From Psammoneis japonica (Eukaryota): DNA of 64,000 nt. Position numbers and translations under genes: made by a program. The stretch covers positions 186,001-250,000 of the forward strand of contig QPGO01000027.1 in NCBI GenBank assembly GCA_008632985.1. The letters run 5' to 3'. Shown here in pieces: positions 14,140-46,332 of the stretch. Numbering within the stretch: the first letter of the stretch is position 1; each line of letters starts with the position of its first letter. The notes under the pieces are model-generated. The model made no database searches, had not been told where the DNA came from, and worked only from the letters and a program-made list of their open reading frames with translations.

Positions 14140-15786
14140 ATAGACGCACGCACAGACACGCAGAGATGCAGAGCCCGATCTTTGAAACTTTTGCGTTGAG
14201 CACATCGGCGCATCCTCCCATCTCTGCTGTTCCATGGCATGTCAAGCCCAGCCAGTGTTTCTTCATCCTCAACTCCCAGGGTGCTCATCCAAGGAGTGCA
14301 GGAGTGGCTCAAATTGAAGCAGGACATTAACTCACAAGACATTCTTGCCCCAACTTCCTTCAGCGCAAGTTGTGGCAAAGCTGTGAGGGCTGGCCTGAGG
14401 ACAAAAATGAAAGCTGTCAAGAAGGCAGGGGCATTGTGATTGTTGTCACTGGGTGGGCCAATTTAATTCATGTTGCTGCTGCCATCAACATCATCTTGAG
14501 ACAGCATCCAACTGAAAGCTGTCCAGCCTTGAAATGCGCTGTAGCGCTTTTTTGAAATGGTGCTCTTGCGGCGGCTTGCTGCCGTGCAGGAGCAGCCACC
14601 ATGCAAAAGCAGGCAAGGATCAAGACTCTTTTGCCTCTTTTTTGTCTTTCGTTGATTGCTCACAAGGCAGCCCCACAAACCAAACAGGTGCACCATTTTT
14701 GTGCGTTGGCATGATGTGTTGATGAGCTCAGTCTTTTGGTGTTTGGCAAGGCACTGCCATCTCACACTGTTCTTCTGGGGACTGCTCATTCACCCAACAA
14801 CACAGCTCCTTTTGTTGAAATGACAAGGCTGGTGTGATTTTTGGCAGCTCAACAATCCAACAGCTCTGGGATGTGCCCACTTGATTTTGGAGCCATTGTT
14901 GCCATGGGTGGCAAGCAGCAAGGCAAGATCACATGAACACAACAAAGTGAGCTGTCACAATTGCTCACAGATCATCACACTTTGTTGCTCTCAGTTTGCT
15001 GTTCCACAGTTGTTGGCTGTTTTCTGGCCATTGAAAAATCTCTCTTTCTTTTGCTCTCTTTTTTCTCCTCTCTTCTTCTCCCTTGCTCTCCCGGCATTTC
15101 TTTTCCAAGCAGTTGGAGGCCTTTGGGGGTGTTGCTGCTGTGTGCAAACCAACCACACCTGTGTTGGGCTTTTTTGCATTCTTCCTTGTGGCAACATTGT
15201 CAGCTGGTCAGGGTGTGCCTTTGTGGGGTGGAGCATGACAAAGACTTTTTTGCTGGTGGGTGTTGAGCTCCAACAGGCAACATGACACCAAGCCCAAGCC
15301 CTCCCATTTTTCTTCTGCAGCAAAGAAAAAAGAAAAGCAAAAATGATTGCATGAGTTTGAGGTTGCACTCTTGGTGGTCTCAAAAACAAAAAAGTTGCAC
15401 AAGCTGTGATTTCACATCAACACATGATCCAAGAATTGCCATGACAGCGTGCCCCAGAGGAGAGTGCAGGGCTGTTGCTGCCCAAGCCACTGCTTGTGGC
15501 TGGCTTGCACATGTGGGGCATCTGTTGCAGCTCCCAGCCCTCTGCCACACACACTCTCCAGCTGTGAAGCTGACAGCTGAGTGAAAACAGGCATTTCCTT
15601 TTATTCAACTGACCTGCTTCTGAGATGTGAGCAAGTGCCACTCAGCTCCTCCTGCATGTGCAAGACAAGAAGACACTGCCATTTTCGGCAGTGCATGTCA
15701 GCATCAATGAAGCCATGCTCACCTCATCTCATGATCTCTCTGCATGAGCTTCAGGGCTCCAGCAGAGAAGACGCTGCCCCAAACCC
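14140..15786. repeat. Degenerate TpA/CpG-depleted block into which the copia element inserted (continues 23069-23830)
   Basis: Composition matches the other eroded blocks, and the same style of sequence lies on both sides of the LTR element. Confidence 0.55.
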
Positions 15787-15791
15787 TGTGC

Positions 15792-16067
15792 TGACAGGAT
15801 TTGAACAGGATTTGGGTGCGCGCGAAGTGTCGCGCGCTGTTTAGTTTACCGCGCACAGTTTTGTGTGCTTTAGTTCCACGCGTTCACGCGCGATGTAGTT
15901 TGCTTTCGAGCCACAAGGCTCACAAGAATGACAACAGTAGCCCGATTGTGCCGACTTGCACGTCTTTCGGCTCCTGCAACGGTCTCTGAGCGGAGACTCA
16001 TCTGCCATTTAGACAGCAGCAAGGAGTTGTTGTTTGAATCCTTGCCATTTGCCTTCAATTTCTGTCA
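15792..16067 (+). repeat. 5' LTR
   Basis: Direct repeat of 22788-23063 with TG...CA termini. I count 14 substitutions between the two LTRs. Confidence 0.97.
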
Positions 16068-16084
16068 GATTAACAGTCTTGCTC
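16068..16084 (+). other. Putative primer-binding site complementary to a tRNA-Asn(GUU) anticodon arm (half-tRNA priming)
   Basis: GATTAACAGTCTTGCTC directly follows the LTR. Its reverse complement GAG-CAAGA-CTGTTAA-TC reads as an anticodon stem plus a CT-GTT-AA loop. There is no canonical TGG start. Confidence 0.5.
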
Positions 16085-17006
16085 ATTGTCAACCCATTGA
16101 GCAACCGCCATCGTCGTCGTTGATTTACCAACAATGCTGTTTCAATCCCACGTGGACCTCCGTGTGTGTTCTACATGCATCGGCAAGTCTGCGCGCATTC
16201 AACACCAGGGCATCGGCAGGAAGTTAATGTCACCGTCAAGTCTCCTCACCGCTGGATGTCTGGATTGATTGCACTGCCTTTGATCGCTGAAGACATGTGT
16301 TCAACGGTCACATCCAAGTCCATCCTTGATCAACATCCCTTGACATGCCTGTTCCTCGGTTGACGGTCAAGAACCCCACATGTTCAAGGATCTTAGTCGC
16401 TGAAGACACATGCACACACACACATCTTCACGGCCAAGAACCTTTGCCCACTCTTCGGACTGCGGTTTTGCTGCCACTCTACAAGCACACCGAGTCCATT
16501 GCACCTGATCTGCCCCGGACTGCTGGTGCTCTGCAGTTCTGCTGGGTCCACGAGGACGACTGTGAGAGCAAGTGGCCGTGATTGCAGCCTGCGTTGGGGC
16601 GAGGGTGCTTTCCCGCGTTTGTTCGTTCGTCCACAGCGCCTGACGCCCACGTCAACTGGCCAGCCTGATCGGGAAATCCAACCGACATAAAATGAGAACG
16701 GTTCGGGGGTCTTGTCCACCTCTGGTCAGCTTGCCTGCAGGGGTTTACAACCCGCTGCTCCGCTCGTAAGCAACCCAAAGCGCCACCAGCTGCGGGTTCG
16801 GACGTGCCGGCACAACTCTACGGACCGGACAGGAAGTTTAGCACTTGACAACGAACGGGACAGCAAAGCCCGGCGACTTCTGATTTTAAGACAGTTCAAG
16901 ATTTCAAGTCAAGTCCATTTCAAGTCAAGTCCATTCTCACCCAAGTTTCGAGTCTGCCTTCGCTTCCCAACCAGAATTGATTGTCCTGACACCACTTTTG
17001 TCTACC

Positions 17007-20000
17007 ATGGTTCTCACTCGTCAGCAACAAACCGATGGTTTCAAGCACGTTGTTGGAACCATGCTTGCCCATGGTGCTGGGAGTCCTCTTCATTTGGCTT
17101 TGGCCCAAGACGGCACGGACTTGCATCAGGAACTGTTCACATTCATGCCGTCCCAAATCGACTCGCTTGAGTGCGACAACGGCACCAATGTGATCCCTTT
17201 GCCCCGTGGTTATAAGAACATGTTAGCAGCACCAGTCAGTCTGTACATTGTCAAAGCACACAAAGGTCTTGACGTTGCCAACGACTCCTCTTTGTTCACG
17301 CATGACGAGTTCCTTGCCTGCCGCCTCAGCCCCGACTGCATGTCTTCTGTGTCCATCGGCAGCTCACCCCTTGCACCTCCGCATGTCACCAACCCGACCA
17401 AGGCACGCGACCCGGTGCGGGACTTCAAGCGAGGCATCAAGCGTGATCCCACTGCTTTCACGGCTCTCAAATCCAACAAGCAGTGGCACACTTGGCACAC
17501 CTCACTTGTGGCACAAGCCCGTGCCCAAGACGTCGAGTGCACTCTAAACTCGTCGTACAAACCGACCAGCCCCGAAGACAAACTGCTCTTTGCTGAACAG
17601 CAAAAGCACATGTTCGCCGTCTTCGAACGCATCCTTCTCACCGACAAGGGCAAGGCTCTCATTCGCGAAAATGTGGGGTCTTCTGACGCACAGACCGTCC
17701 ACCGCGCCTTGTCTGAGTGCGCGCTTGCCTCCACCCGCGCATCTGTCGAGTCCTCCACCCTGCTCACGCACCTCACCACCGCACGTCTTGGTGATGGTGC
17801 TTGGAAAGGTCCGACCCACGGGTTCATCCTTCATTGGCAAGATCAGTTGCGCAAGTACGAGGCACTCATCCCGGCCAGTGACCACTTCTCTGAAGGACAG
17901 AAGCGCGTCATGCTCGAGAATGCCGTGCACCCTGTCGAGGAACTCCGTGCTGTCAAGAACCAAGCTGATCAGCGTCGTACGCAGAGTGGCAAGAGCCTCA
18001 CATACGATCAACACTGTGGCTTGCTCCTCTCCGTGGCAGCTCAGCACGACAGTGTGTTTCAACCCAAGATGACACCTCGAGCTCCCCGATGCGCCATGTG
18101 CGCACACGACGTCTGCTCCGAGGAACCGTCCGACGATGTGTTCTGCGACATTGACAGCGACATTGACGTCCTTCAGGCCAATGCTGCCTGCACCCGCAAT
18201 CCCAGCCTCACCGGTGACCAATGGAGACGTCTCCCTCCCGACCACCAACGGATCTGGGATTCGTTGCCCGACTCCTCCAAGGCGATCATCCTTGAGCATT
18301 CTCGTCCGCCTCCCCGCAACCCGCGAGCCAGCAACTGCCATGAGTCTGTTACGGCCAACCTTCACGACCAACGCCTTGGGAGTGACGGTGATGTCAACTT
18401 GTCCAACACGACTCCTGCTGACTCTGGTGACTCCGCTCCAAATGTGGACGCCAATTCGGATGGTCCCATCATGGCGCACCTCACCAAGCGCAAGTCACTG
18501 CCACCCGGTGATCTGCAACGTCTGTTGTCTCCTAACCAAGCCCCCAATGCTGGTCGACCGGGGCCATCCGCCGCTTCCTCTGCCCCGCCAGCTTCTGCAG
18601 ATGACGTGGAACTTAACGGCCGCACTTGCCGCCGCGTCGACAACCACAATGTCATTTGCTCTGCCTCTGCTCATCGCTCCACACGCACTGGCGCTCTAGT
18701 CGATCGTGGGGCCAACGGCGGCATTGCTGGCGACGACGTTCGCGTCATTGCACGCACCTCTCGCCAAGTCGACGTTCAGGGCATTGACGATCATCAATTG
18801 GTGGACATCCCCATTGTCACCGCTGGTGCCGTCATTGAGACCCAGCGTGGTCCCGTCATCGCCATCCTCCATCAGTGCGCATGCACGGGCAAGGGCAAGA
18901 CCATCCATTCCTGCGGCCAGCTCGAATGGCACAAACAGGATGTCAACGATCGCTCTGTCAAGGTGCCCAACGGCTTGCAACGCATTGCCACTCCTGATGG
19001 CTGTGTCATCCCCATTGACATCAAGGCCGGCCTGCCTTGTGTTGCCATGCGACCTTACACTGACGCCGAATGGGACACCCTGCCCCATGTCATCCTCACC
19101 GGTGATGACACATGGGACCCTTCCGTCCTCGATCACTCTGTCACTGACGACGACCAGTGGTGCGACGCGATCTCTGACCTGCAGGACGATCCCACTGCCA
19201 ACCTGTTTGACGAGTGCGGCAACTACCGTCATCGTGTCGTTGTCAACGAGACCATCATGTCCGCTTCCTTGTCTGCCGATCACGCGTCCGCCCTCGATGA
19301 TCACCTCATTCCGAACAACAACGTGTTCTACGAGTGTCATCTACATGCGATTGACCCCAAGGGCGATGACGTTCCGCCTCCGGAGCGCACTGTACAGCCC
19401 AAGGACCCCCCCTTCGAGTCTCTTCGGCCTCACTTTGGCTTCCCACCTGCCGATGCGGTCCGTCGTACTTTTGACTGCACCACGCAGTGCGCCCGCATGC
19501 CCGCCGGCACACACCTTTGGAAGGCCTGCAAATCACCCAACCCCGCCCTTAATGTGCACCGCCGCAACGAGCCTGTCGCCACTGACACCGTTTGTGCCGA
19601 CACCCCGGCCGTCGACTCTGGTTGCACCAGTGCCCAACTGTTTGTTGGCACCGAGTCTACCGTCACTGACGTCTACGGCACTAAGACGGACAAAGAGTTT
19701 GTCAACACACTCGAGGATCAGATCCGTGAACGTGGTGCCCCATCCAAACTCATTAGCGACCGTGCTCAAGTTGAGATCAGCAACAAAGTGCTCGGGATCC
19801 TACGCGCCCTCTTCATCTCCAGCTGGCAAAGTGAGCCTCACCAGCAACACCAAAACTTTGCCGAGCGTCGACACCAGACCGTGAAGCGCATGGCGTGCAC
19901 TGTCATGGATCGTTTTGGTTCGCCCGCCCACACATGGCTGCTGGCGCTCATGTGCGTGTGCTTCACACTCAACCACACAGCGTCCCCACGTCTCCACTGG

Positions 20001-22780
20001 TGCACGCCCCTCGAGACTCTCACTGGCTCCACCCTGGACATCAGCCCATTGCTTCGCTTTCACTGGTGGGAACCCGTGTGCTTCCACCTCGATGACTCCG
20101 ATTGGCCGTCCGAATCCCGTGAGTTGCATGGACGCTTCGTTGGCATTGCTGAGCACGTCGGCCACCAGATGACCTTCAAGATTCTATCTGACGAGACTCA
20201 GAAGATCCTCTGCCGGTCCAACGTCCGCTCTGCTGCCACCGATCCTGCCGTTTGAAACCTGCGTCTTGATCCTCCTGATGGGGAGCCACCTGAACCCATC
20301 ATCAAATCTCGCCATGACGACAACCCCGTCGATTCTCCTGATGGGGAGATCAGGACACCCAAGATGCCAGTTTTCGATCTGCAAGACATCATTGGACGTA
20401 CCTTCCTCATGCAGCCACAAGAGGACGGACAACGCCACAGAGCTCGCATCGTCAAGGCCGTCGAAGACCACAAATGGAAAGTGAACGGCAATCCCGAGCT
20501 CACTAAGTTCGTCTGCTCTGTCAACAATGATGAACACGAGGAAGTCCTTGCCTGCAATGACATCATGAATCACATTGAGCAAGAAGACGAAGACACTGCC
20601 ATTTGGAAATTTCGACGCATCGTGTCACACGAAGGACCTCTGAAGCCTCACGACCCAACCTGGAAAGGCTCAAGCTACAACATCATGCTTGAATGGGAAA
20701 GTGGGGAGATCACGTCCAAGCCTCTTGCCATCATCGCCAAGGACGACCCCGTCACCTGTGCCATCTACGCACGAGAGAACGGACTCCTCGACACGGATGG
20801 CTGGAAGCGGTTCCGCACCATCGCGAGGCGCCAAAAGAAGCCATTTCGCATGGCCAACCAAGCCAAGCTTCACTCCTTCCGCACTGCACCTCGCTGCAAG
20901 TGTGGATACGAAGTTCCCCGGAACCACAAACACGCCATGTCACTAGACGAACGCAACGGCAACCGCAAGTGGGGAGACGCAACTAATCTCGAGATGGACC
21001 AACTCAACGAATACGAAGTCTTCCATGACTGCGGGCCCTTCAAGTCTTCCACTCCTCCTGCAGGACACAAGAAGATCCGAGTGCACCTGGTGTACGACGT
21101 GAAACACGACGGTCGCCACAAGGCACGACTTGTAGCCGACGGGCACCTCACGGACGTACCTGTCGACAGTGTCTGCTCCGGAGCACCATGACTGCGGGCC
21201 CTTCAAGTCTTCCACTCCTCCTGCGGGACACAAGAAGATCCGAGTGCACCTGGTGTACGACGTGAAACACGACGGTCGCCACAAGGCACGACTCGTAGCC
21301 GACGGGCACCTCACAGACGCACCTGTCGACAGTGTCTGCTCCGGAGCAGTCTCCCTCCGTGGCCTTCGGCTGATGATTTTCCTGGCCGAACTCAACGAGT
21401 TGGAGACATGGGCCACCGACATTGGCAATGCCCACCTTGAAGCCACCACCAAGGAGAAGCTTTACATTGCAGCCGGACCCGAATTTGGCAAACTCGAAGG
21501 ACACATCCTTGTCATCCACAAGGCACTGTATGGACTGCGCAGCTCCGGTCTCCGCTGGCACGAGCGCTTCGCCGACTGCCTGCGAGCTGAAGGCTTCTTC
21601 CCCTGCCGCGCCGAACCCGACATTTGGATGCGCAGGAACGGCGACCACTGTGAACACATTGCCGTTTATGTGGATGACCTCGCCATTGCCATGAAGGACC
21701 CTCAATCTTTCGTCGACACTCTCACGGAAAAGCACAAGTTCAAGCTCAAGGGTGCGGGACCCATTGAGTTCCATCTGGGTTGCGACTTTTCCCGGGATCC
21801 CGACGGAACCTTGTGCCTGTCTCCGCGCAAGTACATCGAGCGCATGGTCGACAGCTGCGCCCGACTGTTTGGGGAGAAACCTGCCACCAACGCCCTGTCA
21901 CCTCTGGAGAAGGGTGACCACCCCGAACTGGACACTTCCGAACTGCTGGGACCCGATGGCATTCACAAGTTCCAGTCTCTTGTTGGTTCACTCCAATGGG
22001 CAGTGTCCCTTGGTCGAATTGACATCACCACGGCCGTCATGTCACTCTCTAGCTTCCGAGCTGCACCCCGTCAAGGCCACTTGGATCGTGCCAAACGCGT
22101 CTGTGGGCACCTCTCCAAGATGCGACACGGTGCTCTCCGCGTTCGCACGGAAGAGCCCGACCATTCGGATCTCCCTGCTCCGGCCTGTGAATGGATGCAT
22201 TCCGTGTGTGGCGAATCAGAAGAGATGATCCCGAAGGATGCTCCACCAACCCCTTGGCAAGTTCGTCACCACCACCCACTGCGTCGATGCAAACTTGTGC
22301 CATTGCATGCTCACCGGACGCTCTGTCATGGGAATGCTCCACTTCCTCAACAAATTCCCGGCTGATTGGTTCTCTGAGAAGCAAGCCACCGTGGAGACTG
22401 CGACCTGCGGGTCTGAATTTGTTGCCGCAAGGACTTGTGTTGAGCAGATTGTCGACCTGCGCATCACCCTGCGCCACCTTGGCGTCCCGATCCGCAATGT
22501 CAGTTGCATGTTCGGTGACAACAAGTCGGTTGTGGACAGTGCCACCATCCCGCACTCCAAGTTACACAAGCGACACACCGCACTGTCGTTCCACCGTGTG
22601 CGTGAGGCAATTGCCTCTGGTTGCCTTGAGCTCCACTTCATCGAAGGCTCCCGCAACCCTGCTGACATTCTCAGCAAGCATTGGGGTCACTCCCAAATCT
22701 GGGACCTTCTCCGCCCCCTCATGTTCTGGAACTTCATTCCATCCGAAGTTGAATCTGTTTCTGTGACTCCTCAAGCAAAC
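17007..22780 (+). pseudogene. Copia gag-pol polyprotein (Gag, aspartic protease, integrase, RT, RNase H) with a nonsense codon and frameshifts
   Basis: PR: ALVDRGANGG. IN: VATDTV, LISDRAQVE, SEPHQQHQNFAERR. RT: HKARLVADG, TDIGNAHL, LYGLRSSG, VYVDDL. RH: ETATCGSEF, FGDNKSV, NPADILSK. Lesions: in-frame TGA at 20253-20255 (likely from CGA), a 163-bp duplication and a frameshift near 22250. Confidence 0.93.
21023..21348 (+). repeat. 163-bp tandem duplication inside RT
   Basis: 21023-21185 is repeated at 21186-21348 with 4 substitutions. The length is not a multiple of 3, so it frameshifts RT. Confidence 0.95.
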
Positions 22781-22787
22781 TGGGGAG

Positions 22788-23063
22788 TGACAGGATTTGA
22801 ACAGGATTTGGGTGCGCGCGAAGTGTCGCGCGCTGTTCAGTTTACCGCGCACAGTTTTGTGTGCTTTGGCTCCGCGCGTTCACGCGCGATGTAGTTTGCT
22901 TTCGAGCCACAAGGCTCACAAGAACAACAACAGCAGCCTGATTGTGCCAACTTGCACATCTTTCGGCTCCTGTGACGGTCTCTGAGCGGAGACTCATCTG
23001 CCATTTAGACAGCAGTGAGGAGTTGTTGTTTGAATCCTTGCCATTTGCCTTCAATTTCTGTCA
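22788..23063 (+). repeat. 3' LTR
   Basis: Direct repeat of the 5' LTR, followed by TSD TGTGC. Confidence 0.97.
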
Positions 23064-23994
23064 TGTGCTGCTGGCAAATTTGCTCACAACCTCCTCTTCT
23101 TCTTGGCCTTCACCCACACGTTTGTTCCTTCTGACAAAACCACAGCTCATCTTCAGACAACCACATTGTGGCATGGCCCAGTCAAAGTTGTTTGGCCAAA
23201 CAACAGCAGAGCAGTGTTTGTGAGCAGACAACCTGATTTTCTGAGTTCCAGGGGCTGGCTGCAGCCACGGCAGCCAATGCAGAAAAAAGAAGCGCTGCAA
23301 AAAAAGGAGATTGCTCAACCAGCCAACAAAATGTGCTGGTTGACCCTTGCACCACTTCCACCCCATTTTTTTTCTGAAAAAACAAAAGGTTCAGAGACTG
23401 GCAACTCCACAGTGCACACCGCTTTCTCCACAGAGTGGTTGGGCACCCAGAGAAACTTGGTGTGCAGCATGTTGCAAAAGCACATGTGTGTGGACTGGCG
23501 CTTGCACTCTCTTTGCAAACTGGCAAGATGAACAAAGCCCAAATGGTGATGAAAAGAATTGTGTGGTGGAAGCCGAGTGTGGCACGTCAATGGCACCCCC
23601 CGAAACATCTCCGGTGCGCAGAGGACACGACCTTGAGAGAAAGCCAGACCATTGGAGTGAGCAAGAAAAGTGCACAGCAGCTGCTGCTCTCTGCTCTAGA
23701 TCAGCCGCTGCTCTCTGCTAGAGCAGAGAGACAGAGAGTGTGTGTGCATTCTGGGGGGGGTCTCCAGCCAGCTGCTGGCTGAAGAATTTTGTGTGCCAGT
23801 AGAAATTGCGCTGAAAGAGTCTGTGAATCTGTGCGTTAGGGGGTTTTGGTGAACGCTGGACGACGGACTCGTCTTCTCTTGCGTAGGGGGAACCTACGTA
23901 AAAATTGTACCTACCGGTACTTGCAAAACCCCAAACGGTGTCTGTTTTTGTTGTCATCTCACATTCATCAATGTCTCAACACTATTGACTCCAT

Positions 23995-29541: not shown

Positions 29542-30655
29542 GGTGATGCACGCAAAATGGAGATCATCCAGCAAAACGTATCTTCCTCCTTCTGGTCCCA
29601 GAAAGCGCTCGCTGAGAACAGCGGGGCTATCGATCGAGGCAGATGCCGCGGTTTGGGTTGTTGCAACTTCGTACCAGACGTAGTAGGAGTATGATGATGT
29701 GATGTGTTGGAAGTTCGAAGTTGCAATCTGTTGTTTTCTTTCTCAGAATTTTCATCACGGTCAGGCAGCGTGCGGTACAGTAACAGTAACGGTAGACGGA
29801 CGGACCGTGCGCAAAAGACGTAGAGTCTGTCCTGCGTTCACCGAAAACGCACTGCTCGACTGACTGATTCAATGCAAACACTGCACTCATGGCGCTGAGC
29901 CAACAACATGGCAAGTGCAATGTGACCTCTGCACCAAGGTTAACACCACCTTCAATGTTGCCAACATTCTAGAACTGCAGGCTGTCCATCAAAGAGCATG
30001 CACTGCAAAGAACAATCTGGTGCTCTGGGCACAAAGGAGTTTGCTGCACAGCGCATCTGGGACGCCAACAATCTGGGTCTGACCGTCTGCCACAATCTGG
30101 GCATTTCTTGACTTTAATGCCAGATTATTGTTAACTTATGAGCCAATTCTCTCCTTAAACATGACATGAGAACTGTGTGAGTTTATGAGCTTCTAAAACC
30201 TGGGTCGCTTCTCACTTTTTTAAGTGTGGTCATTCTTTTCACACAATGCTGACCTGCACCCCAATCAACATTTGCGGTTTCTCGTCATTTTAACACAAAT
30301 GTTGCCACTTATAATCCACCCTCCTTTTCCACCAACTCGTCCTACATTTCATCTCTTTGCCATGTCATTTTCAAATCCAAGTTCCCAATTGCCACACGTT
30401 CTTGCATCTAAACCGCATTGCAGAATGTTTTTTTTTATTTTCGCTTGTCCAGATTTTATTGTTTGTTTCAAATTGCGTTTACACACCAGTTTGGTTGGTG
30501 GCCATTTCGGCATTTGCTGCCGCTCCGTTGCCTGCAGCCACCGCCTGCAATGGCAGGTCCTCTCCCATCGGCGCCGCCCATCCTTCCTCTCTCTCCTTTC
30601 TTTTTTCCTCTCTCTTGCGTTTCTTGTTTTCCTCCTGAGACAAGTTGGTCTTCTC

Positions 30656-31591
30656 TCACCTTCTCTCCTTGAACCATGCACAGAATCCCTGGTTGCTCTC
30701 TCTGTCTTTCACCACCCACTGACATGGATCATTGTGCTTCTTGATCCCCTCCTTGCTCCATCCTTGGTTCCTCTTTGCCGATTCCCCCGCCGCCTGCGCT
30801 GTGCACTTTGCAGGAGCAGCATCTTTCACAGTTGGCTTTCTTCTCCTTGCAACATTTTCTTCCTTTTCCAATTTCTCTGCCATGTCCTTCACCTTGTTGC
30901 AGCAGTTCAAGCACACCAGCAGAGCAAACGCCTCTGACGAAACAGAAAGCCACTCCTGAAGCATGTCGGCTGTGCTTCCACCAAACTGCGCTTGTCCCAC
31001 CACCGTTGGCACCACAGTTTCCAAGAACCACATGCATGTGTCCTTGTCATTTCTTCCCTTTGTCAAATCTTTGTAATCCACCAGCAATCCCTCTAAAGCA
31101 GCAACTGCACAGATGAAAGCAAAGGAAGTGACACTCATCCCGTTGGACAATCGCCTCCAACACAATCAATGACATGCACACATCTGCTTGCCTGTCATTC
31201 TCCTCCCAATGTTGTCCTGCACATTGTTCCTCTTTTGGTTGAGTTTGGTCCTGAACTGCCAGAATGCCTTTGGCAAAGACGCCATGCTCCTCAACTCCTG
31301 CAGAACCAATTTCATGCAATCTCCTCCTACGGCGAGTTCATGATTGAAGATTGTGAACTTGCGACATGGCCAAACACTCTCATTGACAACCTTTGTCAAC
31401 ATTGATGCCATCAATTTCTTGCCCACCGCCGGTGCATGATCCAACACAAGACATCCCTCTGTGGGAGTCACCAACGAACTTGAATCCCCACCTGCGCACT
31501 GGAATCTGTTCAATTCCCCATGTTCGTTTCTTTGTGCATGCAACAAGGCCGCCACCGCAGGACTCATGGTGACTTCATGTGACACCACCAC
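30656..31591 (-). pseudogene. Transposon accessory ORF (SEAFALLV...GWSKEGIK..N.L type), left-arm copy
   Basis: RTKLN.KRNNVQ, a probable intron with an eroded donor (GCAAG for GTAAG), then WFLETVVP.VVG, SVSSEAFALLV.LN, K(Y>C)T and GWSKEGIKK(Y>H)ND. Confidence 0.55.
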
Positions 31592-32332
31592 ACAGATGAA
31601 TCCAAGAATTCTGTTGGCTCATCAGCAACTCTTTGTCATGTCCTTTCTCAACCTCACTTGCTGCTGGAAGTTGCACTTCCTCCCTCCGTCACTCCTGTGA
31701 GAACCGTGTCCTCCATCTTTTTTGCCTTCCCAATGGCTTCCTCTCATTTGGAACTTCCGTCCTTTCCTGTCGCTTTATGAAAGGCAAGTTGCAAAATGAA
31801 TGCACTTTGCATGTGATTTTCTTGGTTTTGTTGTTGCTCGCGTGTCCTCTCTCGATTCAAACAGGTCTTTGCATCATTTTTGAGTGCTCATTCCCAACCC
31901 CATGTTTGAATTTTTATCAACGTTAAACTGTTTTGAATTGCGCACCTTTGTCGGCCAATCCAGTGCGCCAATGAAGATTGCAACATCATTTGAATCAACA
32001 TCGAACAATGTGTTGCATCTCCTTGTGTTGGTGTGTGCATTGCGCCTGCTTCCTGATGCAACATCTGTTTCATTTGGTTTGTTGAGTCGTGTCAAACCTC
32101 CCATTTGTTTGCACAAATCCATGTCGCTCACTGTCTCACATCAATTTGTCCCTGTCTTAACAGGTCATTCTCTCCACTTCCCCGACACCACATCTCTCCA
32201 ATTGCTCTCTCTTTTGCCCAAATTGTCCAACCCACTTTCAATGGCCACTGAAGGGTTTTATTTTCACGACTGAGACATGGTTGTTGTGAGTCGTTCCCGT
32301 TGCAGGAATGCGCATTCCCTCTGTTGCAATCA

Positions 32333-33440
32333 CATGCCGCCAATTGATGATCAAGTTGGTCATTTTGCTGGTGGTGGTGTGGAATCACACGGTGGTGCGG
32401 CAAGCTTTGCCTTCTTCACCGAGGTCATTTGCAACCCTGCTCTCCTTGCGGCCCAAATTCGAAGCCCCTTTAATTTCCTCGATGTTGGTGGTGGTGTTGG
32501 TGGTTTTGCGATTGCCTGTCGTTTGCTTGTTCCTGCCTGTGATGCCTGCAGCATTGAGTTCCACTGCCCCCATCATGATTTGGGCTCTCAGTGGTGTGAT
32601 GCCATCTGGCACAACCATGCCAGTTGCTGTCCTGCCCTGATCAATCAGGACTTCCTCTCTGAAGATGATGCTGTGCGTCGGTTGCACCGTCTGAACAACT
32701 TAAAGATTTTCTTCAACAACTGCAATTGGCGAATGCTTTTTGACAACAATGCAACACAGAACCAACTCGAGGAGACACTGTCCAACGAGTGTCCTGAAGG
32801 TGCTGTCATCATTTCACTGGACGTGATGTTTTGTGTGTGTGCCCACAAATGGAGTCATGAAGCATTCTTTGTTCCTGCCCATCCAGACAATCTAGAGTCC
32901 ATCGCAGAACAAGACCCGGCACAAATTAAGACCCGTCGTGGGTTGCAGCACAAAAAGCGCGTAAAATTTTCTTTTGGTCAAAAAAATTTGAGAGGCATCG
33001 CGTTCGAAAGAGCACGGCGAGAGCAGTCGATTGCCGCCCTTTTTACCCCCCAGAAAAATCTTGGCCCTTGCGTGGCGCGGTCCAATCTCCAGCACTCAAA
33101 TCACGTGCATTTCTGCGTGGGTCTTAAATCACAACCTCTGTGTCAGCCTTGGCTTGTCGGGCATTTTGGTTCACGTGCTGAAACTCTTCAACCATTCGGA
33201 TTTGAAAAAAAAGTGAAGATTTTTTTGTGACAAGTTCGATGTGTTCTTTCACATTCAGGCGCGCAATTCCGAAATGCACGAACATTGCGGCATCTGCATG
33301 GATGGAGATCTTAGGTGGGTCTTGCTGTGTGATGGACTCTGTCGTGGGGAGGTGGTGTCGACAGGCACCTGCTTCACAAGCACACCAAGAAAAGAGACGA
33401 TGCCATGGAGCCAAGGCATTCCACTGGGAACAACCTGGGG
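32333..33440 (+). pseudogene. DOT1-like class I SAM-dependent methyltransferase (cargo), interrupted by a MITE
   Basis: ES(Y>H)GG, FNFLDVGGGVG, SIEF, QDFL, KIFFNN(Y>C), PEGAVIISLD. The motif order matches DOT1 (YGE, F.DLGSGVG, G.E, GDF, IF.NN, G..IIS). Confidence 0.6.
32895..33339. mobile_element. 445-bp MITE with ~23-bp TIRs and TA target-site duplication (Tc1/mariner-type)
   Basis: TIRs GAGTCCATCGCAGAACAAGACCC and GGGTCTTGCTGTGTGATGGACTC, flanked by TA (32893-4) and TG (33340-1). It is absent from the orthologous empty site in the right arm (~47400). Confidence 0.9.
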
Positions 33441-33637
33441 TCTGATGTCAAACGAAAATTCAAGCCTGCCAAAAGTGGGCAACTTTGCAATTCCCCTTTG
33501 TTTGCAATGCAACTTTCTTCCATGAAAGCAATGCATTGTTAACTGGCCCTTTGCACAAACCCACTTTTTGCCTCTGCTGACTTGCTGCTTTGCTGGTTTC
33601 GCATTCCAACAACTGCTTGTTCACACACTTGCCATGT

Positions 33638-34410
33638 TCACATGCTTGCCATGTCGAAATTGTGGACTGGACATGCCATGTTCCTTCGACCCGAATTTGT
33701 TTTGTCAGGCAAAGCCTGGTGCAACATTCTTGCATCAAAAACAAATGCAGTGCCTGCTTCTCCAACCAGCAATTGTTTTTCCAAACCCAACCTGACCAAG
33801 TGTCTTTCACATTCCTTCTCATTCAATGTTGCCTCACAACTGTCCAGCCATGTCTCAGCTGCACCATTGTGCTCCGTTGTGTCATCAAGGAACAGAAACA
33901 TGGTGAAAATTTTGTTGCCAGGTGATGATTTTGTTTCCATGTAATCACGATGAATTCCCCCCTTTGACCAGAAGTTTGATCTTGAACTTGAAGCAGGAGC
34001 GTTTGCCGCTGTGTGCCGGGACATCTTTCTGCACAAATCACCTGCTGGGGGAAAGCCAGGAATTGACTCCAACATTTTTTCTGCCAATCCAATGCCTTCC
34101 TCCTTGTCCTTTTTGTCAATGGCAAACTCACCAACAAAATGGTGTCCTTCGTTCTCTTGCTTGCTGCTTGGTGCCTTGTTTGCCAGTGTTGTTGTCTGGT
34201 TGAGCAGGGGCAGTGGTGTTTTGAATTTTTGCAAGCAGCCTTTTTTTCCTTCCTGGTGCACTCTTTCTTTGGACCTGGCCGTCTCACTCTTGACGACATG
34301 AGATTTCATTTTGCCAGGTTGTGTCAGCAACTTGCCATGTTTCTGACATGATGTTGTCAGCCAACGGGCAAATTTCCGGCATCCATTCACAGAACACTTC
34401 CGCGCCATTC
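33638..34410 (-). pseudogene. PhyH-like 2OG-Fe(II) dioxygenase with N-terminal Cys/His finger (cargo), left-arm copy
   Basis: IHRD (HxD), MFLFLDDTTEHNGA, GEAGTAFVFDARMLH.A..K..S.RR (distal His and 2OG-binding Arg). N-terminal CSVNGCRK...CQKHG. Confidence 0.7.
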
Positions 34411-36249
34411 TCTGGAAATGCCTGTTCCACAAAATCAAATGGCACCCAGTCTTTTTTTTAAGTGGAGCAGACCCAATCCAGCAAAAGTCCGCATCCATTG
34501 CTGTGCAACAAAAACGGCTTTCTCGCCAAACATGTGTTGCCAATGGCAGCCCATCTGTTGTGTGCACCACAGACATTTTTTTCACAAACAGTCCCGTGTG
34601 ATGTGTTGCCAACGGCAGTCTGTCTCTTGGGTGCACCACAGACATTTTTTTCGTAAACAGTCCCATGTGATGTGATCTTCGTTGATCCTGTTTGCTGCAT
34701 GATCTCATCAAATGGGTCATCCCAGCCATCTCAAAAGTGCAGAAAACAATTTTGTCACACGCTGTCCTGTTGGTGCTGTTGTGAGATGTTTTCACATCGC
34801 CACCGCGGCAGACACAGAGAACAGCTGCCATCCACCATTCATTCTGCACCACAAACAAACTCTTTTAGAAGAATGCACACAATGAATGATTGCAAATGAC
34901 AGGTGTCACTTTTTTGGCAACACCCCCATCTGTTGACAGAGCAATTTGGCATCACTTTTTTGTTGTCACAACTGTGTGTTGACAAAGCAATTTGGTGTCA
35001 CTTTTCTGTTGTTGTGCACATTTGTCAACAGAAGAATTTGGCATCAGTTTTTCATTGACACACGTGTCTGTCAACACATGCCTTTGGCATCACTTTTTTG
35101 TTTGCGCACTTGACACCAGCCTGTGCGTTGTCGTGACACAAAGCACATCTCCCACAGCAAACCACATTCTCCTGAATCTTGTCCAAGTCGCTGATCAACT
35201 CATGTTGAGCAGTGAACAGATGACATTTGGGCAACTCTGTCTCTTGTCCTCTGCAGCCTTGTCATTCCCTTTGCAGGGCAACAACCTCAAAATGATCCCA
35301 CCCCGAAGAATGCTGCCCAACCCCTCACCTGTTACACCACATCACCGAAATGGAACCGACAAATCTTTTTTCGTCCGATGCATCACACTTCTTTCCTGCT
35401 GACATTCCACCTGACTCAACCTGCAGCATTGACCAACAATCCATCTGGCCATTGTCCCCCGCCGGTGCATCTGGCCCCGTTCAGCACAGAAAACAGCCTT
35501 GACACCAAATTGAGGCTGCATCATTCTCCCACACGTTGGGCAAATGAACGCAGTCATGTTCATTCATCACTCAAAAAAAGGGGTTTGACCGATCACTCAA
35601 TCCGTGGCATTGTGCTGATGATGTTTGATGCGAAAATCTTTGCGTTTGAGAGCAGTGGGAAGAGCAATGCACACAACCCAAACCACCTTGGTGAATTTGC
35701 AAAATGGCCGGTACACCCAAGCTGCGCTCGATTGGCTTTGAAGGAGGCAGCCCTCCCAGAGCTGGCTCAAAGAAAGAAAAAAATGACGCGCACAAAAATC
35801 ATTGATGCTCGCTGCTTCCAAACCAAAAAATGCAAAACATCTGCAGCGGCACAGGTGAGGGATTGCATCTTGCGCACTGCTTCCAATTCCCATCTGTTTC
35901 TTGCCTGACAAATTTGTTGTTGATGCTTCCTAGAATGAAAGCCTTGCCAAAAGTCCAACGATTGCAACTGGTGTCGATTCCTGTGTGGAGGGCACCAATG
36001 ACGACAACAATGACACAACATGGGCGGAGACAGATGTCATGGATGACGAACAACAAATTTTTGCTGTTGCAGACAGTGAGGAAGTTTCGCCAGCAAGGGA
36101 TTTCATCTGTCGTGCTGCTTCCCTTTCCTGTCTGTTCCCCACCTGACAAAGTGCATGTTGATGTCTCCTGGAATGAAAGCAAAGCTCAAAGTCAAACGAT
36201 TGCCGCCGGTGTCGACTCCGTTCAGGAGGCACCCACAACAACAACAATG

Positions 36250-39200
36250 ACTCTGCATGGGTGGAGACAGATGACATGGCTGACGAACATCCAATTGATG
36301 CCAGCAGATTGTTGGCAATTGGCATGGAAGTTGGTGGTGATTTAAATGGAAGTGACAAAGATGCATGCGATGGCATTTGAGCTCAACGCCTGCTGGATCT
36401 TGGATGTGAAGTTTGCACAATTGACAAGAGGATGCGCTGTGCTTCCTTGCCGAAGCACATAGAGTGCGATGTTCTAAGTTTGCACAGATCAGCGAAATGG
36501 AAGAGATCATCCAAAGGACAAAGCTCGATCACATTTGCTTTGACTGCGTGCAATCAAACCCGGCCTGTCTCTTGGCTTCAGTTCTAAAGGGACCTTTTTT
36601 CCAAGATGCACTCAGGGAGCTGCTGCGGTTGCTGACAGATGATGGGATGTTCTTCCTGCCTGTGTGCAATCTTGCGTTTTCCGAGTTTTGGATCGAATGG
36701 AAGAAACAACGCATGTCGGAAGAGTGCCCAACTCGCTTCTTGCGTGAAGAGCAAGCACACGACGAGGTCCCCATCCTTCGAGATGAGGCACAAGTGGACA
36801 TCTCTGCCTGCAGAAAGTTTTGTACAAGGGAAGAATGCATCAAGGATTGTGAGTTAAAACATGAAGAAGTGAGGTGGCTCACAGCAACAGATGAAGCTAC
36901 ATTGGCGCATTTTCCAGATTTCAGGGGTCCAGTCAAATGCATCGGATTAACTGGAAGAAGAAAGGACCCTTGCCATGTGCCAGTTTTCACCGGTGACAAC
37001 TGTGTGTGTTGTCCAACATGCAGTCTCAAGAGACACGAGCGCTTTCTGCGATGCCCACATTGCAGGCCAGTTCCCATCCGGAATGCTGTGCAGTTTGATC
37101 TTGACTACAAAGACGCACCTGACTCAGCATGTGGAATGAAAAACAGCAAGAAAACAAAGGAAGAATTTCTCCTCCAGCAAATCAAAAAGTGCAACTCCGA
37201 TCTTGTCAGCTGTTGGAGGCAGAAGGACCAACCAAATGGGGTGGGTGGAAAGAACTGGGGTTTGTCGTTAATGCATCCCAAAAGCATCAGCAAAAGTTCG
37301 AACAACAAAAGAGAACTCAAGCGAAAATTCTGCCTGAAACAACCTTGCCGGAAGTCCAACAAGCTGTCTGACACGTTCGACAATGACATTCCATTCATTG
37401 AAAAACCAGGCAGGGAGGGAACGAGGTGTTCCCTCATCATCCACTTCAAGCCACATGTGATGGCACATGGTGCTGTGGGTCCGAATGCTTTGAAGCAAAT
37501 GTGTCAGCACCTTCAAAGCAAGGCAGAGATTCTGCGTTCAGATGCTGACCACCCGTGCAGGGCAAGTGATCCAACTCGTCCATTTGTTTTGAACCTGGAT
37601 GCAATGGAGGGAATTGCCGACAATGCCGTCTTCAGGTCGTGCAAGTTTGACAAAAGAATTCTTGGATTGGGTTTGTCAATGCAGCTCAGAACCATTGTTG
37701 AACAGGGGCTGAGCAGTGGGTTGGCAAGAGAGTTTTTGCTTGCAGCAAAGTTTGACCATTCATTTCAAGGGACTGTTGCCAAAGATTTTGGCATGAATGG
37801 AGTGATTGCTCAAGGTTGGAGCTGCCATGGTGGATCAGGTGTTGCAAGGCCTGGAACAACAGAAAAGGAAAAAGACCTCTCTCCGAGATGCAGACAGTGG
37901 ATTTTGCAACTGACCGTGATTTTGATTCACATCATGTGCCAAAAAGCTTTGCAGGGAACACCAAGGTCTTCCCAAGGAGAAATGTTGGAGGAAAGACGAA
38001 GGTTGTCTGAGAAATGCCAAGTCTGGCTGGGTTGCCAGAACGATTGCAAGGTGTGTTAAAGCTCAATGAGGCAGGATCTCACATTGCCGGTTTTGCTTTC
38101 ACACACTTCGACGGGGAAAATGAGTGGGAATTCCTCTTGGATGAGGTTGGCAACAGTGTTGACTTCATTGATGATTGGCGGGATTACAACATTGGCAAAG
38201 ATTTGGTGGACAAGCTGAAAAGGCACTTGGTCCCCATCACCAACACCATGTTTGACCATCTGTCGTACAACAGAGAGATTGTCAGAATTCAGTTGCGAAA
38301 GCTGCTGTTCAAGACGGATTGTGAACATGCAAATGCCCTGTTTGAACAACTGGAATCCCCAACAGATGGCTTCAACCTTTCCACTGTGGAGAACAAAGAT
38401 GATGTTCAGTGCACTGCCCAGCATGTCAGGGATCACCTAAAGCGATTTGACAGTGGCAACCACAAAGGCATGTTGGGATTGCTTGTTGACGAAGGCAAAG
38501 ACAGAGACCTCCTCCTGGGATTGATCACCCACATCTGGTTCAATTTCACATTTCACCATGAGGGGCACGTCACTTTTCACCATGGAGACGAATTTGCGGC
38601 ATTTGTGGGTGTGGAATTCAATGGTGCACCTCTTGTTTCTCTTGTTGCATTGAGAGAATCTGTGAAACCCGAAAACCAAGAAAAAATCTGTGAAAACTTT
38701 AATGCAGAAAAATGAGATGGGATTGTTGCATTGCCGGCTGGTGTCGATGACGAAGCAATTGAAGAACAACGGTGACATGAGCAGAATGACGTGTTCAACA
38801 TTACAGAGATTTCAACACATGGATCCTTTGTTGACCAACATTGAGGAGATGCGAATCTACTGTGTGTTCATTTCCAGTCAATTTGATGTTCTGCGGGCAA
38901 AGGACACCATTGGAAGTCACGAATCTGCTGGGGAACATTTGTTTTGTTGCGAAGCCAGGAAGAACAAACCACCAAAGCAGTGGCTGCCAAGCACAAGGTT
39001 GGGTGATGTGTGTGCAGCTTTGACGATCCAATCGGCTTCCGTCATGGGACAAATCCCCCCTCAAAATGCAGCAGTGGTGCGCATGTCCAAGGGTGATTCT
39101 GGATTTCATCTGTTTGTCAACATGTGTGTTGTCGGGAAAGAAGCACACGCGAGAGGCGAATGGATCTCCTCATTGAAGGCAAGGGAAGTTGTTCAAAATG

Positions 39201-39559
39201 CAATTGAAGTTGCAAGAAAAAATGGCAGAAGACCAACTTGGGCCAAATGTGACCAACTGGGCTGCAGGGAATGTCGATCGATGAACAACAAGTTGTGCAA
39301 GGATCCACACCACCTCGTGTCGAGCGATCGAGGTGTGTCACCCGTTCGCTCTCTAGAACATTTGAGTGAGTCAACAAGCGGTTTGTGGCCTGATGAATCA
39401 GAACACAGGATTGAACACTTTGCTTGTGATCAATGGCATGATTTGTCAACTCATGTCGATGTTTGCTCTCATGTCAAGTCAAAGCATGACTTGACAAAGC
39501 AGAAGGGTTTGTTCCAATTCCAAGAATCGAAACTGAGCAGGACCAACCAGTGCTTTTAG
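36250..39559 (+). pseudogene. Long uncharacterised cargo ORF(s), fragmented, containing a CxxC-x9-CxxC finger
   Basis: ORF pieces 36464-38059, 38014-38715 and 38690-39559 are mirrored in the right arm (42221-44721). Contains CPTCSLKRHERFLRCPHC. No family recognised. Confidence 0.4.
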
Positions 39560-39814
39560 ACATGTTGGCATGCCATTGCTCTTCAATGCACTTGCTGATG
39601 GAAGGAGCAACATTGCTCTTCAACGCACTTGCTGATGGAAGGAGCAACAATGAGTGGCACCAACAGATGCTGTCAGATGGGTTGACACACCTTTTGCAGC
39701 AAACTCGTTGTGAACATTTCCTTTTTCCCAAGGTGCGTTGTCGTTTCTCTTTGTCTTGCTTCCTGCATTCATCTGGATGAAGCTGGATCACTTTGTTGGA
39801 CAGGAAACAATTTG

Positions 39815-41269: not shown

Positions 41270-41900
41270 ATCCGTGTCATCCCGGAAACTGCAGAATTGG
41301 ACTCTGCCCTGCTTCAGTTTTTGTTGTCGCCAACAGAGGAACTTTCCGCCAACCGTGATGAAGCAGTTGTTTGCTCGGAGTTTGCCATGCCAGAGAAAGG
41401 GATTTTAATGTGTGGACACCCCAATTACAACAACAATGGGTTGTGGCACGACACACCCAGGGTCTTGTACAAAGAGGGAGCCGGTCAGAAAAAAAGGCAC
41501 CCGTTTGTGCTCCGTGGTTTTGTGTCAGCTGATGACGGAACAATGCCGCTTGCTGCAGGAGAGTCATGCAAGGAACAGACGAAGACGTTGCGTGACAAGT
41601 CTTCCAACAGTGTGGTTGAGCACTGGGAACTTAAAACAACAACTGTTGGTCATGGCAGAGAGTCTCAGACGATCCCAAAATTTCGGCATGCCAGCAGAGA
41701 CGCAATGGCAGCGGGTGGTTTCTCTGTCCTTGTTCCTGACAACTGCAATGAAGACAACGTTGAAGCGTTGGGACACTGAACTCAATGTTGTTTGTTGCAG
41801 ACAGACACAATGACTGGCCAAATTATTTCCTGTCCAACAAAGTGATCCAGCTTCATCCAGATGAACGCAGGAAGCAAGACAAAGAGAAACGACAATGCAC
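41270..41900 (+). pseudogene. Plavaka-like transposase C-terminal region running into the right arm
   Basis: MCGHPNYNNNGLWHD (cf. R.HPNY...G.WYD), P..LRGFV and DR.NDWPNYFL. Confidence 0.55.
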
Positions 41901-44900: not shown

Positions 44901-46332
44901 CTGTGCCGCCACAGATCTTTTGCATTTTTTGTTTTGGAAGTGGCGAGCATCAATGATTTTTTTGCATGCCTTTTTTTTCTTTCGTTGAGCCAGCTCTGGC
45001 AGGGCTGCCTCCTTCAAAGCCAATCTAACGCAGCTTGGGTGCACCGGCCATTTTGCAAATTCACCAAGGTGGTTTGGGTTGCATGCATTGCTCTTCCCAC
45101 TGCTCTCGAACATAAAGATTTTCGCATCAAACATCATCAGCACAATGCCGCGGACCAAGTGATCTGTCAAACCCCTTTTTTTGAGTGACAAACAAACATG
45201 ACCGCATTCATTTGCCCAACATGTGGGAGAATGACACAGCCTCAATTTGGTGTCAAGGCTGTTTTCTATGCCAAACGGGGCCAGATGCACCGGCGGGAGA
45301 CAACAGCCAGATGGATCATTGGTCAACGCTGCAGGTTGAGTCAGGTGGAATGTCATCATGAGAGAAGTGCAATGCATCGGACGAAAAAGAGATTTGTCGG
45401 TTCCATTTTGGCAACGTGGCCTAGCAGGTGAGGGATTGGGTGGCATTCTTTGGGGTGGGATCATTTTGAGGTGGTTGTTTTGCAAAGGGAATGACAAGGC
45501 TGTGGAGGACAAGAGACAGAGTTGCCCAAATGTCATCTGTTCACTGCTCAACATGAGTTGATCAGCGACTTGGACAAGATTCGGGAGAATGTGGTTTGCT
45601 GCGGGAGATGCACTTTGTGTCACGACACTGTGCAGGCCAGCATTGAGTGCACACACAAAAAAGTGATGCCAAAGCCATTTGTTGGCAGACACATGTGTTG
45701 GTGAAAAACTGACACCAAATTCTTCTGTCAACAAATGTGTTTGACAACAGAAAGATGATGCCAAATTACTTTGTTGACACACAGTTGTGACAATAAAAAA
45801 CTGACACCAAATTGCTGTGTTGACAGACAGGTGCATTGCCAAAAAAGAAATGCCTGTCATTTGCAATTGTTCATTGCACACAAAATTCCAAAAGAGACAG
45901 TTTGTGGTGCGGAATGAACGGTGGATGGCAGCTGTTCCTTTGTGTCTGCCGCTGTGGCAATGTGAAAACATCTCACAAGATCACCAACAGGACAGTGTGC
46001 AACAAAATTGTTTTCCATGCTTTTGAAATGGCTGGGATGACCCATTCAATGAGATCATGCAGCAAACAGGATCAACGAAGATCACATCACACGGGACTGT
46101 CTACAAAAAAAACGTCTGTGGTGCACCCGACAGACAGACTGCCGTTGTCTGCACATCACACGGGACGTCCGTGGTGCACACAACAGATGGACTGCCGTTG
46201 GCAACACACATTTGGCAAAACAGCCATTTTTGTTGCACAGCAATGGATGTGGACTTTTGCTTGATTGTTTCTGTTCCACTTAAAGAAAAAGACTGGGTGC
46301 CATTTAATTGGGCAGAACAGGCATTTTCAGAG

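Follow-up and report, generated by a model that had tools for sequence, protein, structure and literature searches.

Hypermutation at TpA dinucleotides has been described once in the literature searched, in a 2026 preprint by Mettrop et al. on the chlorarachniophyte Bigelowiella natans (10.64898/2026.01.13.699255). The available part of that preprint reports that in mutation-accumulation lines 230 of 231 mutations in integrated giant-virus and virophage regions were A-to-G/T-to-C, all at TpA, that the TpA rate was ~6e-7 per site per generation, in some lines only, and that the genome contains clustered windows poor in TpA and rich in CpA+TpG; an ADAT2-like deaminase is proposed there as a hypothesis. 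No report of TpA hypermutation in a diatom was found in the literature searched, which omits most subscription journals. For diatoms, the accessible portions of two studies describe methylation of transposable elements (TEs) by DNMT5a (Hoguin et al. 2023, PMC9998398; PMC12344493). The present analysis concerns a Ty1/copia-type long terminal repeat (LTR) retrotransposon, and the TA- and CG-poor islands around it, in the diatom Psammoneis japonica. Positions are those of the window, the whole 64,000-nt stretch of contig QPGO01000027.1 (assembly GCA_008632985.1) that was analyzed.

The explanation that best accounts for the data as a whole, to which a probability of roughly 0.78 is given, is hypermutation of TpA in place after insertion, accompanied by a slower decay of CpG. 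The copia-type element would have inserted into an island of transposon DNA that was already mutated. A first, faster process would then convert TpA to TpG or CpA by A-to-G change on either strand, and a second, slower process would convert CpG to TpG or CpA, as deamination of 5-methylcytosine (5mC) in methylated diatom transposons would give. The two LTRs would be hit independently, such that a site hit in both on opposite strands would read TG in one and CA in the other. The mutational spectrum, its timing after insertion, its direction, the involvement of both strands and the sharp bounds of the islands are supported directly by the data presented below. The chemistry is probably adenine deamination for TA and 5mC deamination for CG.

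Divergence of the LTR pair and of other duplicated sequences

The element and its parts comprise the following features:

15787..15791, + strand: left copy of the target-site duplication (TSD), TGTGC, 5 bp (read from the sequence)
15792..16067, + strand: 5' LTR, 276 bp, with ends TGACAG...CTGTCA, retaining 6 TA and 20 CG (alignment, repeat search)
16068..22787, + strand: internal region, Ty1/copia-type, with a TA observed/expected (obs/exp) ratio of ~0.2 and CG of ~0.9 (homology to the polyproteins of relatives, dinucleotide counts)
21023..21348, + strand: two tandem copies of a 163-bp unit (21023-21185 and 21186-21348) at the start of the reverse transcriptase (RT) (repeat search, self-BLAST)
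21136..22365, + strand: RT open reading frame (ORF), Pfam RVT_2 E 4e-28, in which 9 of the 13 Tyr conserved among relatives are now His (CAY) or Cys (TGY) (Pfam, alignment)
22774..22787, + strand: purine-rich tract ending GGGGAG just before the 3' LTR, a putative polypurine tract by position (read from the sequence)
22788..23063, + strand: 3' LTR, 276 bp, retaining 3 TA and 18 CG (alignment, repeat search)
23064..23068, + strand: right copy of the TSD, TGTGC (read from the sequence)

Alignment of 15792-16067 with 22788-23063 gave 276 columns and zero gaps, and a repeat search placed both LTRs in one direct-repeat family with a spacing of 6996 bp. Because TGTGC borders both outer ends, the LTRs are those of a single insertion. 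They differ at 14 columns (51, 81, 83, 87, 138, 139, 147, 152, 162, 171, 186, 187, 229 and 230), all 14 differences being transitions and 13 lying within pyrimidine-purine (YR) steps. These steps comprised TA/CA at columns 51 and 147 (n=2), TA/TG at column 81 (n=1), CG/CA at columns 87, 162 and 171 (n=3; in the order CA/CG at 87), CG/TG at column 152 (n=1), and three double differences between TG and CA (138-139, 186-187 and 229-230), with both orientations present. The single difference outside a YR step is T/C at column 83. The alignment thereby reproduced the total, the restriction to transitions and every class count given in an initial annotation of this DNA.

The YR class is broad, accounting for 144 of the 276 LTR positions. 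Among 200,000 trials with 14 randomly placed sites, 0.12% put 13 or more of them in YR steps (P=0.0012) and 0.027% gave three or more steps with hits at both positions (P=0.00027); the observed pattern is unlikely to have arisen by chance. If TA and CG were ancestral, the 3' LTR lost more steps than the 5' LTR (6 versus 1), an asymmetry that is not significant.

The initial annotation had placed these mutations after integration, on chromosomal DNA, and had argued against RNA editing or RT error. Both statements are upheld. The TSD is intact, and neither RNA editing nor RT error can make the LTRs of one insertion diverge; a like spectrum is also seen in two duplicated sequences that need no passage through RNA, one a tandem duplication and the other a 9-kb inverted repeat. 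It had also held that dating by LTR divergence would overestimate the age of the element, which is borne out by a divergence of 14/276 (5.1%) overall versus 1/132 (0.76%) at non-YR positions; such dating is inflated in genomes of this kind, here ~6.7-fold.

The tandem duplication is that at the start of the RT, where the two 163-bp copies differ at four sites, all four being YR transitions (CA/CG, TG/CG, CG/CA and TA/CA). The inverted repeat is older and supplies larger counts:

30054..39814, + strand: inverted repeat arm 1, ~9.7 kb (self-BLAST)
41819..50197, - strand: inverted repeat arm 2, ~8.4 kb, 88-93% identical to arm 1 (self-BLAST)

Across 8359 aligned positions, the arms show 789 differences, consisting of 660 transitions and 129 transversions. 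TG/CA double differences number 157-161 (orientations 76:85), CG-versus-TG/CA differences 172, in all four combinations of arm and strand (46, 38, 51 and 37), and TA-versus-CA/TG differences 42; 126 CG but only 30 TA are common to both arms. Zero CG/TA differences occur between the arms in the 8359 aligned positions. At non-YR positions there are 105 transitions and 31 transversions in 4258. The TG/CA class is a major class of change in this genome and no quirk of one LTR pair. Two further features of the comparison were observed: transversions affect 98 of 4101 YR positions versus 31 of 4258 non-YR positions, a frequency ~3 times higher, and single differences of TA versus TG exceed those of TA versus CA, 29 to 13.

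Each LTR double site descends from a TA or a CG that was mutated in both LTRs, on one strand in the first and on the other strand in the second. The log-likelihood for the three LTR double sites is -21.39 if all were TA versus -27.75 if all were CG, and it is concluded with moderate confidence that they are more likely former TA than former CG. In the inverted repeat, a decomposition assigned ~29 double sites to CG and the remaining ~130 to TA. From the unmutated and singly mutated steps of the LTRs, 0.37 opposite double hits are expected for TA (3 intact, 3 single) and 0.12 for CG (17 intact, 4 single). A homogeneous two-copy hit model was therefore rejected because it underpredicts the double sites, with 0.5 expected versus 3 in the LTRs and ~37 versus ~160 in the inverted repeat. 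If the per-copy loss of TA equals that of Tyr codons (0.57-0.73; see below), the expected number of LTR double sites becomes 1.5-3.5. The excess is read as near-saturated loss of TA together with a residue of newly arisen or protected TA, and not as one-step mutation of TG to CA. A two-step route, TG to TA to CA, was likewise rejected as the main source because its first step would proceed at the background rate, which the non-YR transitions of the inverted repeat put at 105/4258 (2.5%), versus ~10% of CA/TG steps switched.

Rates drawn from the LTR pair are rough, the counts being small: 4 of 21 CG steps differ, as do 3 of 6 TA steps (6 of 9 with the double sites counted as TA), or, per position, ~12-fold (CG) and no less than 30-fold (TA) above background. 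The oldest islands have a TA/(CA+TG) ratio of ~0.01 and a CG/(CA+TG) ratio of ~0.025. If these islands are at steady state, loss is ~100-fold (TA) and ~40-fold (CG) faster than re-creation.

Identity of the element, direction of change and extent of the islands

The element is a Ty1/copia-type LTR retrotransposon in a diatom genome. It shares with diatom Ty1/copia elements paired LTRs with TG...CA ends, a 5-bp TSD, an RVT_2-type RT (Pfam E 4.2e-28; ORF 21136-22365) of which the closest named relatives are those of the diatoms Cylindrotheca closterium and C. fusiformis, and a putative integrase region before the RT. A gag-protease-integrase part at ~17001-21212 and a C-terminal RNase H-like part at ~22235-22732 match seven intact environmental polyproteins, each a single ORF of 1834-1934 aa. 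The segment 17001-21212, upstream of the RT, aligns with their N-terminal ~1400 residues. As judged from this alignment, the order would be copia-like, with the gag-protease-integrase part, including a putative integrase, ahead of the RT. No Pfam gag, protease or integrase match was obtained for the 1121-aa ORF at 16890-20255 at E up to 5. Diatom Ty1/copia elements are known as "CoDi" elements. Unlike its intact relatives, the present copy carries the 163-bp duplication, whose length, not being a multiple of 3, puts the beginning of the RT out of frame, and has had most of its conserved Tyr codons converted; this copy is dead.

The direction of change can be read from the coding sequence. Upon alignment of the RT with 120 homologues, 214 columns showed at least 80% agreement. 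Tyr was kept at only 3 of 13 such columns, five having become His (CAC/CAT), four Cys (TGC/TGT) and one Phe, versus retention of Arg at 16/16, Leu at 23/23 and Gly at 24/25. The 35 Tyr residues aligned with the reference protein P0025 now read as Tyr in 8 cases, His in 9, Cys in 11 and other residues in 7, such that 20/35 are CAY or TGY. Against the seven intact polyproteins, Tyr had the lowest retention of the 20 residues in 7/7 comparisons (0.12-0.21), its chief fates being Cys and His. Given that the change of Tyr (TAY) to His is about as frequent as that to Cys (9:11 with the P0025 reference), TA has been rewritten to both CA and TG, on both strands.

The rest of the family was compared by means of Logan read contigs from four runs of one sample, which are possibly the assembly's own data and so not independent. 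The family is very abundant: 14,040 contigs of run X1 lie on the stretch, and the summed word depth in that run is 34,000-270,000 on the element versus ~60-100 in its flanks. Differences between the family and this copy, counted by place, comprise 259 transitions versus 27 transversions, and 40 of 304 difference rows were examined in context. Among these, TA is found in the other copies (75-93% of depth) versus CA or TG here at 16149, 18145 and 22376, and is polymorphic among copies at 16177, 16272, 16311, 16321, 16344, 16347 and 17233; at 17233-17234, where this copy has CA, 54% of depth carries T at 17233 and 31% carries G at 17234. CG is present in all other copies versus TG or CA here at 17122, 17141, 18090, 18198 and 20380. 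Environmental relatives were rejected as outgroups for the LTRs, their DNA identity being at most 72% and their families being different. TA and CG have both been lost toward TG and CA. The dinucleotide classes of the initial annotation, which spoke of interchange between TA/CG and CA/TG, thus stand, and the direction that it left open is now fixed.

A dinucleotide profile in 500-bp steps shows the window to be a mosaic of gene stretches and TA/CG-poor islands:

4.5-8.5, 11-14, 24.5-30 and 61-64 kb: gene stretches, TA obs/exp 0.3-1.0, CG 0.8-1.2 (dinucleotide profile)
1-4000, 9001-11000, 14501-15791, 23064-23500 and 30501-61000: islands, TA obs/exp 0.00-0.1, CG 0.03-0.6, TG+CA 1.4-2.1 (dinucleotide profile)
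14501..15791, unstranded: older TA/CG-poor island, left part, with 2 TA and 11 CG in 1291 bp (counts; 14800-15817 matched by X1 contigs with 0 differences)
23064..23500, unstranded: older TA/CG-poor island, right part, with 0 TA and 5 CG in 437 bp (counts; 23040-23788 matched by an X1 contig with 0 differences)

The change from gene to island falls inside one 500-bp window of the profile, with 0-3 TA per 500 bp in islands versus 12-41 in adjoining genes. In the 10.5 kb of 50501-61000 there are 26 TA and 62 CG versus 2498 CA+TG, and the GC content of islands is 0.44-0.50, as in genes. The TpA signature of low TA with high TG+CA is bounded to mobile and repeat DNA, the genes beside the islands being unaffected. 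The copia element was inserted in an already mutated island and is itself intermediate (TA ~0.2, CG ~0.9). The TA-free flanks at 14800-15817 and 23040-24100 are matched by X1 contigs with 0 differences at a depth of ~60-100, these contigs reaching only 26 and 24 nt into the LTRs.

The near absence of TA removes TAA and TAG stop codons, which accounts for the long ORFs of the islands. At 30000-61000, stops per kb are 0.4-3.6 for TAA and 0-1.1 for TAG, versus genic densities of about 8-11 for TAA and 6.5-15.8 for TAG. The islands there contain numerous overlapping ORFs, 150-540 aa long, in every frame of both strands and with no family match; island ORFs are likely to be false genes in automatic annotation. 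One of them, a 408-aa ORF at 33638-34864 (- strand, in arm 1 of the inverted repeat), has weak matches below the Pfam cut-offs to 2OG-Fe(II) oxygenase (E 3e-4) and PhyH (E 1.5e-3), and may be a dioxygenase-like gene remnant in hypermutated repeat DNA. Arm 1 also has extra segments at ~32894-33337 and ~37165-38041 that are missing from arm 2, and the 2-kb spacer between the arms (39815-41818) is TA-poor like both of them. The inverted repeat may derive from a large transposon present twice or from a palindromic duplication. At the arm 2 border, in the most TA/CG-depleted island (50198-54124), lie related short repeats that are 190-400 bp long, share 85-93% identity and occur in both direct and inverted orientation. 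Around the copia element, a direct repeat of ~100 bp, 77% identical (14798-14898 and 24418-24515), brackets the element, the old island and a further ~900 bp, and may represent remnant LTRs or ends of an older element that received the copia insertion.

The host genes of the window are long intronless ORFs encoding an AAA ATPase, a MOSC protein, a queuosine-salvage protein, an ABC transporter and a GMC oxidoreductase. The best named relatives of the queuosine-salvage protein are those of the diatoms Nitzschia, Cylindrotheca, Fistulifera and Mayamaea (42-45% identity), which points to a diatom host with no near named relative among the matches of that search. An 886-aa ORF (27082-29742, - strand) contains GMC oxidoreductase N and C domains plus the start of an ABC-transporter ATPase domain, and the next ORF downstream (25606-26808, - strand) an ABC-2 membrane domain; the former may have come from reading two genes as one, or may be an uncommon oxidoreductase-ABCG fusion.

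One process or two, and alternative explanations

A metagenome scan yielded 50 loci encoding relatives of the element, with DNA identity of at most 72%. At three of these (L032, L029 and L020), TA obs/exp is 0.13-0.31 and CG 0.74-0.80, and Tyr has changed to His or Cys at 19/29, 19/29 and 11/28 positions, respectively; the other 47 loci show at most 3 such changes. Conversely, 7 of the 50 loci are CG-poor (at most 0.30) with TA of 0.52-0.85. Among the 120 database homologues, one (P0074) displays the change of Tyr to His or Cys together with the low-TA signature. These cases suggest that the TA process spans more than this element family. Given that the TA and CG signatures occur apart, and that in the young element the loss of TA is advanced and CG is near intact, two processes are concluded.

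For the slower of these, change of CG to TG and CA is found on both strands and is confined to transposon DNA, genes keeping CG at ~0.8-1.2. That the locus carries 5mC is suggested by the TE methylation described in the available text of published diatom studies (PMC9998398, PMC12344493). Decay of CpG by this route would explain 4 LTR differences, 3 of the 4 in the tandem duplication and 172 in the inverted repeat, but cannot account for the loss of TA.

The strongest competitor, though an unlikely one, is a single deaminase acting on both adenine and cytosine in DNA and aimed at silenced islands, which would erase TA and CG together. The depletions of TA and CG do share sharp island borders, both types of change occur within one LTR pair, and the B. 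natans preprint, as far as its text is available, cites reports of ADAT2 enzymes that can deaminate both of these bases in DNA (10.64898/2026.01.13.699255). However, one such enzyme does not readily explain why the young element has TA of ~0.2 but CG of ~0.9, nor the three TA-poor relatives with CG of 0.74-0.80 and the seven CG-poor relatives with normal TA. In addition, 230 of 231 hypermutations in the accessible part of the B. natans study are at TpA only (10.64898/2026.01.13.699255), and the TE-restricted 5mC of diatoms, on what is available of PMC9998398 and PMC12344493, by itself predicts CpG decay.

Gene conversion from diverged copies of the family, which would have overwritten part of one LTR, is improbable. 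The very high copy number of the family would furnish donors, its copies differ by the same transition-rich YR spectrum, and the excess of TG/CA double sites would be easily explained. Nevertheless, the intact TSD excludes recombination between two elements, the LTR differences are spread over columns 51-230 and form no single tract, and the 163-bp duplication and the 9-kb inverted repeat have the same spectrum without donors. Conversion also merely shifts the problem, for the differences of the donors need the same mutation process.

The three accounts that remain are each very improbable. According to the first, decay of cytosine alone, by C-to-T change at CpG and CpA/TpG in methylated DNA or in a manner resembling repeat-induced point mutation (RIP), produced the pattern, with TA as the product. 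All 14 LTR differences are transitions compatible with one-strand C-to-T change, those of CG type are frequent, and DNMT4, which is related to the RID protein of fungal RIP, occurs in some diatoms according to the portion available of PMC9998398. Yet TA is near absent where enrichment would be expected (26 TA in 10.5 kb at 50501-61000), conserved TAY codons have become CAY or TGY while other copies keep TA, and not one CG/TA difference exists in the ~8.4 kb over which the arms of the inverted repeat align. The locus does resemble the RIP of Neurospora and other ascomycetes, as outlined in the accessible text of PMC9998398 and PMC7296669, in the local, fast, transition-only mutation of repeats, which ruins coding and leaves sharp-edged, skewed islands. 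The two differ in that RIP, in the same sources, turns CpA into TpA, raising TA and lowering GC, whereas here TA is removed and GC, at 0.44-0.50, stays close to the genome average. The TpA excess and AT enrichment that are the hallmarks of RIP are absent from the islands, where TA is 0.00-0.1 and GC gene-like. RIP also depends on sequence being duplicated; here the spacer at 39815-41818 and the single-depth flanks are depleted alike, though they may once have been repeated.

According to the second, an artefact of assembly or base calling arose from modified CG or TA being read as TG from one strand and CA from the other, the consensus picking one. Such an error would yield TG/CA differences between truly identical repeats, without TA or CG. 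Against it stand the X1 Logan contigs, which, though from the same sample, reproduce the TA-free flanks with 0 differences at a depth of 60-100; the recurrence of Tyr-to-His/Cys change with low TA in metagenome contigs L029, L032 and L020 and in protein P0074, all from separate public records; the coding consequences of the signature; and the untouched state of the genes beside the islands.

In animals, APOBEC3 (G-to-A) and ADAR (A-to-G) hypermutate retroelements, acting on a single strand at the cDNA or RNA stage that precedes integration. The present changes are alike in being context-dependent transitions of deaminase type that inactivate a retroelement, but such enzymes cannot give discordance of the LTRs on both strands or mutate flanking and non-retroelement DNA. 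Editing before integration, whether ADAR-like on RNA or by deamination of cDNA in reverse transcription, would fit a preference of ADAR for A after U, which would give TA-to-TG (available text of 10.64898/2026.01.13.699255), and could still contribute changes common to both LTRs, but it fails in that LTRs copied from the same template would carry identical edits, that both strands are hit about equally, and that duplicates which need not have been retrotransposed and the old flanking island are affected alike.

Several observations weigh against in-place TpA hypermutation with slower CpG decay, and are reflected in the probability given above. Single differences of CG type (4 in the LTRs and 3 in the duplication) are at least as many as those of TA type (3 and 1), so that the LTR pair is not a pure TpA case, and the available part of the B. 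natans study reports no CpG component (10.64898/2026.01.13.699255). Only ~0.5 LTR double sites (0.37 + 0.12) are expected versus the 3 seen, and the LTR sites must differ in mutability or else the rate of loss must lie above the single-site estimate. Among the 40 of 304 family rows, TA stands here versus TG in 82-100% of other copies at 17857 and 18004; the sole LTR row among them, site 15938, is split between C (59%) and T (41%), and the direction at the 14 LTR sites themselves is only probable. Finally, some of the Tyr losses may predate this insertion, the source copy having been mutated before.

Comparison with B. natans and significance

The P. japonica locus resembles the B. natans system, on what is available of that study (10.64898/2026.01.13.699255), in the change of TpA to TpG or CpA on either strand, in its confinement to foreign or mobile DNA, in windows of low TpA with high CpA+TpG, and in its action on chromosomal DNA. 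The hosts differ, being a diatom (stramenopile) here and a chlorarachniophyte (rhizarian) there, as do the targets, LTR retrotransposons and entire repeat islands being affected here. The erasure has gone much further here, with TA obs/exp of 0.00-0.1 versus a Rho of 0.45 for the nucleocytoplasmic large DNA virus (NCLDV) region in the part available of the preprint, and CpG is lost from the islands too. De novo mutations were recorded there, whereas the evidence here is comparative only, consisting of the LTR pair, the duplicates and the codons.

A dedicated enzyme may be responsible for the loss of TA and may act as a genome defence. A broader proposal, put forward only tentatively and more doubtful than the account of the locus itself, is that diatom genomes are defended by a dedicated DNA-editing system, which would locate silenced mobile DNA and turn nearly every TpA into TpG or CpA, probably by adenine deamination. 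Such a defence would be common to diatoms and the rhizarian Bigelowiella, and so would be old and found across the stramenopile-alveolate-rhizarian (SAR) assemblage. LTR pairs would catch the process in mid-course, within less than 1% divergence of unaffected positions, at a per-site rate that would exceed that of CpG decay several-fold and the background by some two orders of magnitude.

The LTR pair constitutes the cleanest natural experiment for this process because its starting state is known to be identical, and pairs of this kind allow relative rates to be measured genome-wide. Hypermutated transposon proteins escape profile searches, as exemplified by the 1121-aa putative gag-integrase ORF, which lacks a Pfam match. 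If TpA hypermutation is true of both diatoms and a chlorarachniophyte, it would represent a second mutational genome defence beside fungal RIP, of opposite chemistry (A-to-G and GC-raising), in ecologically dominant algae.

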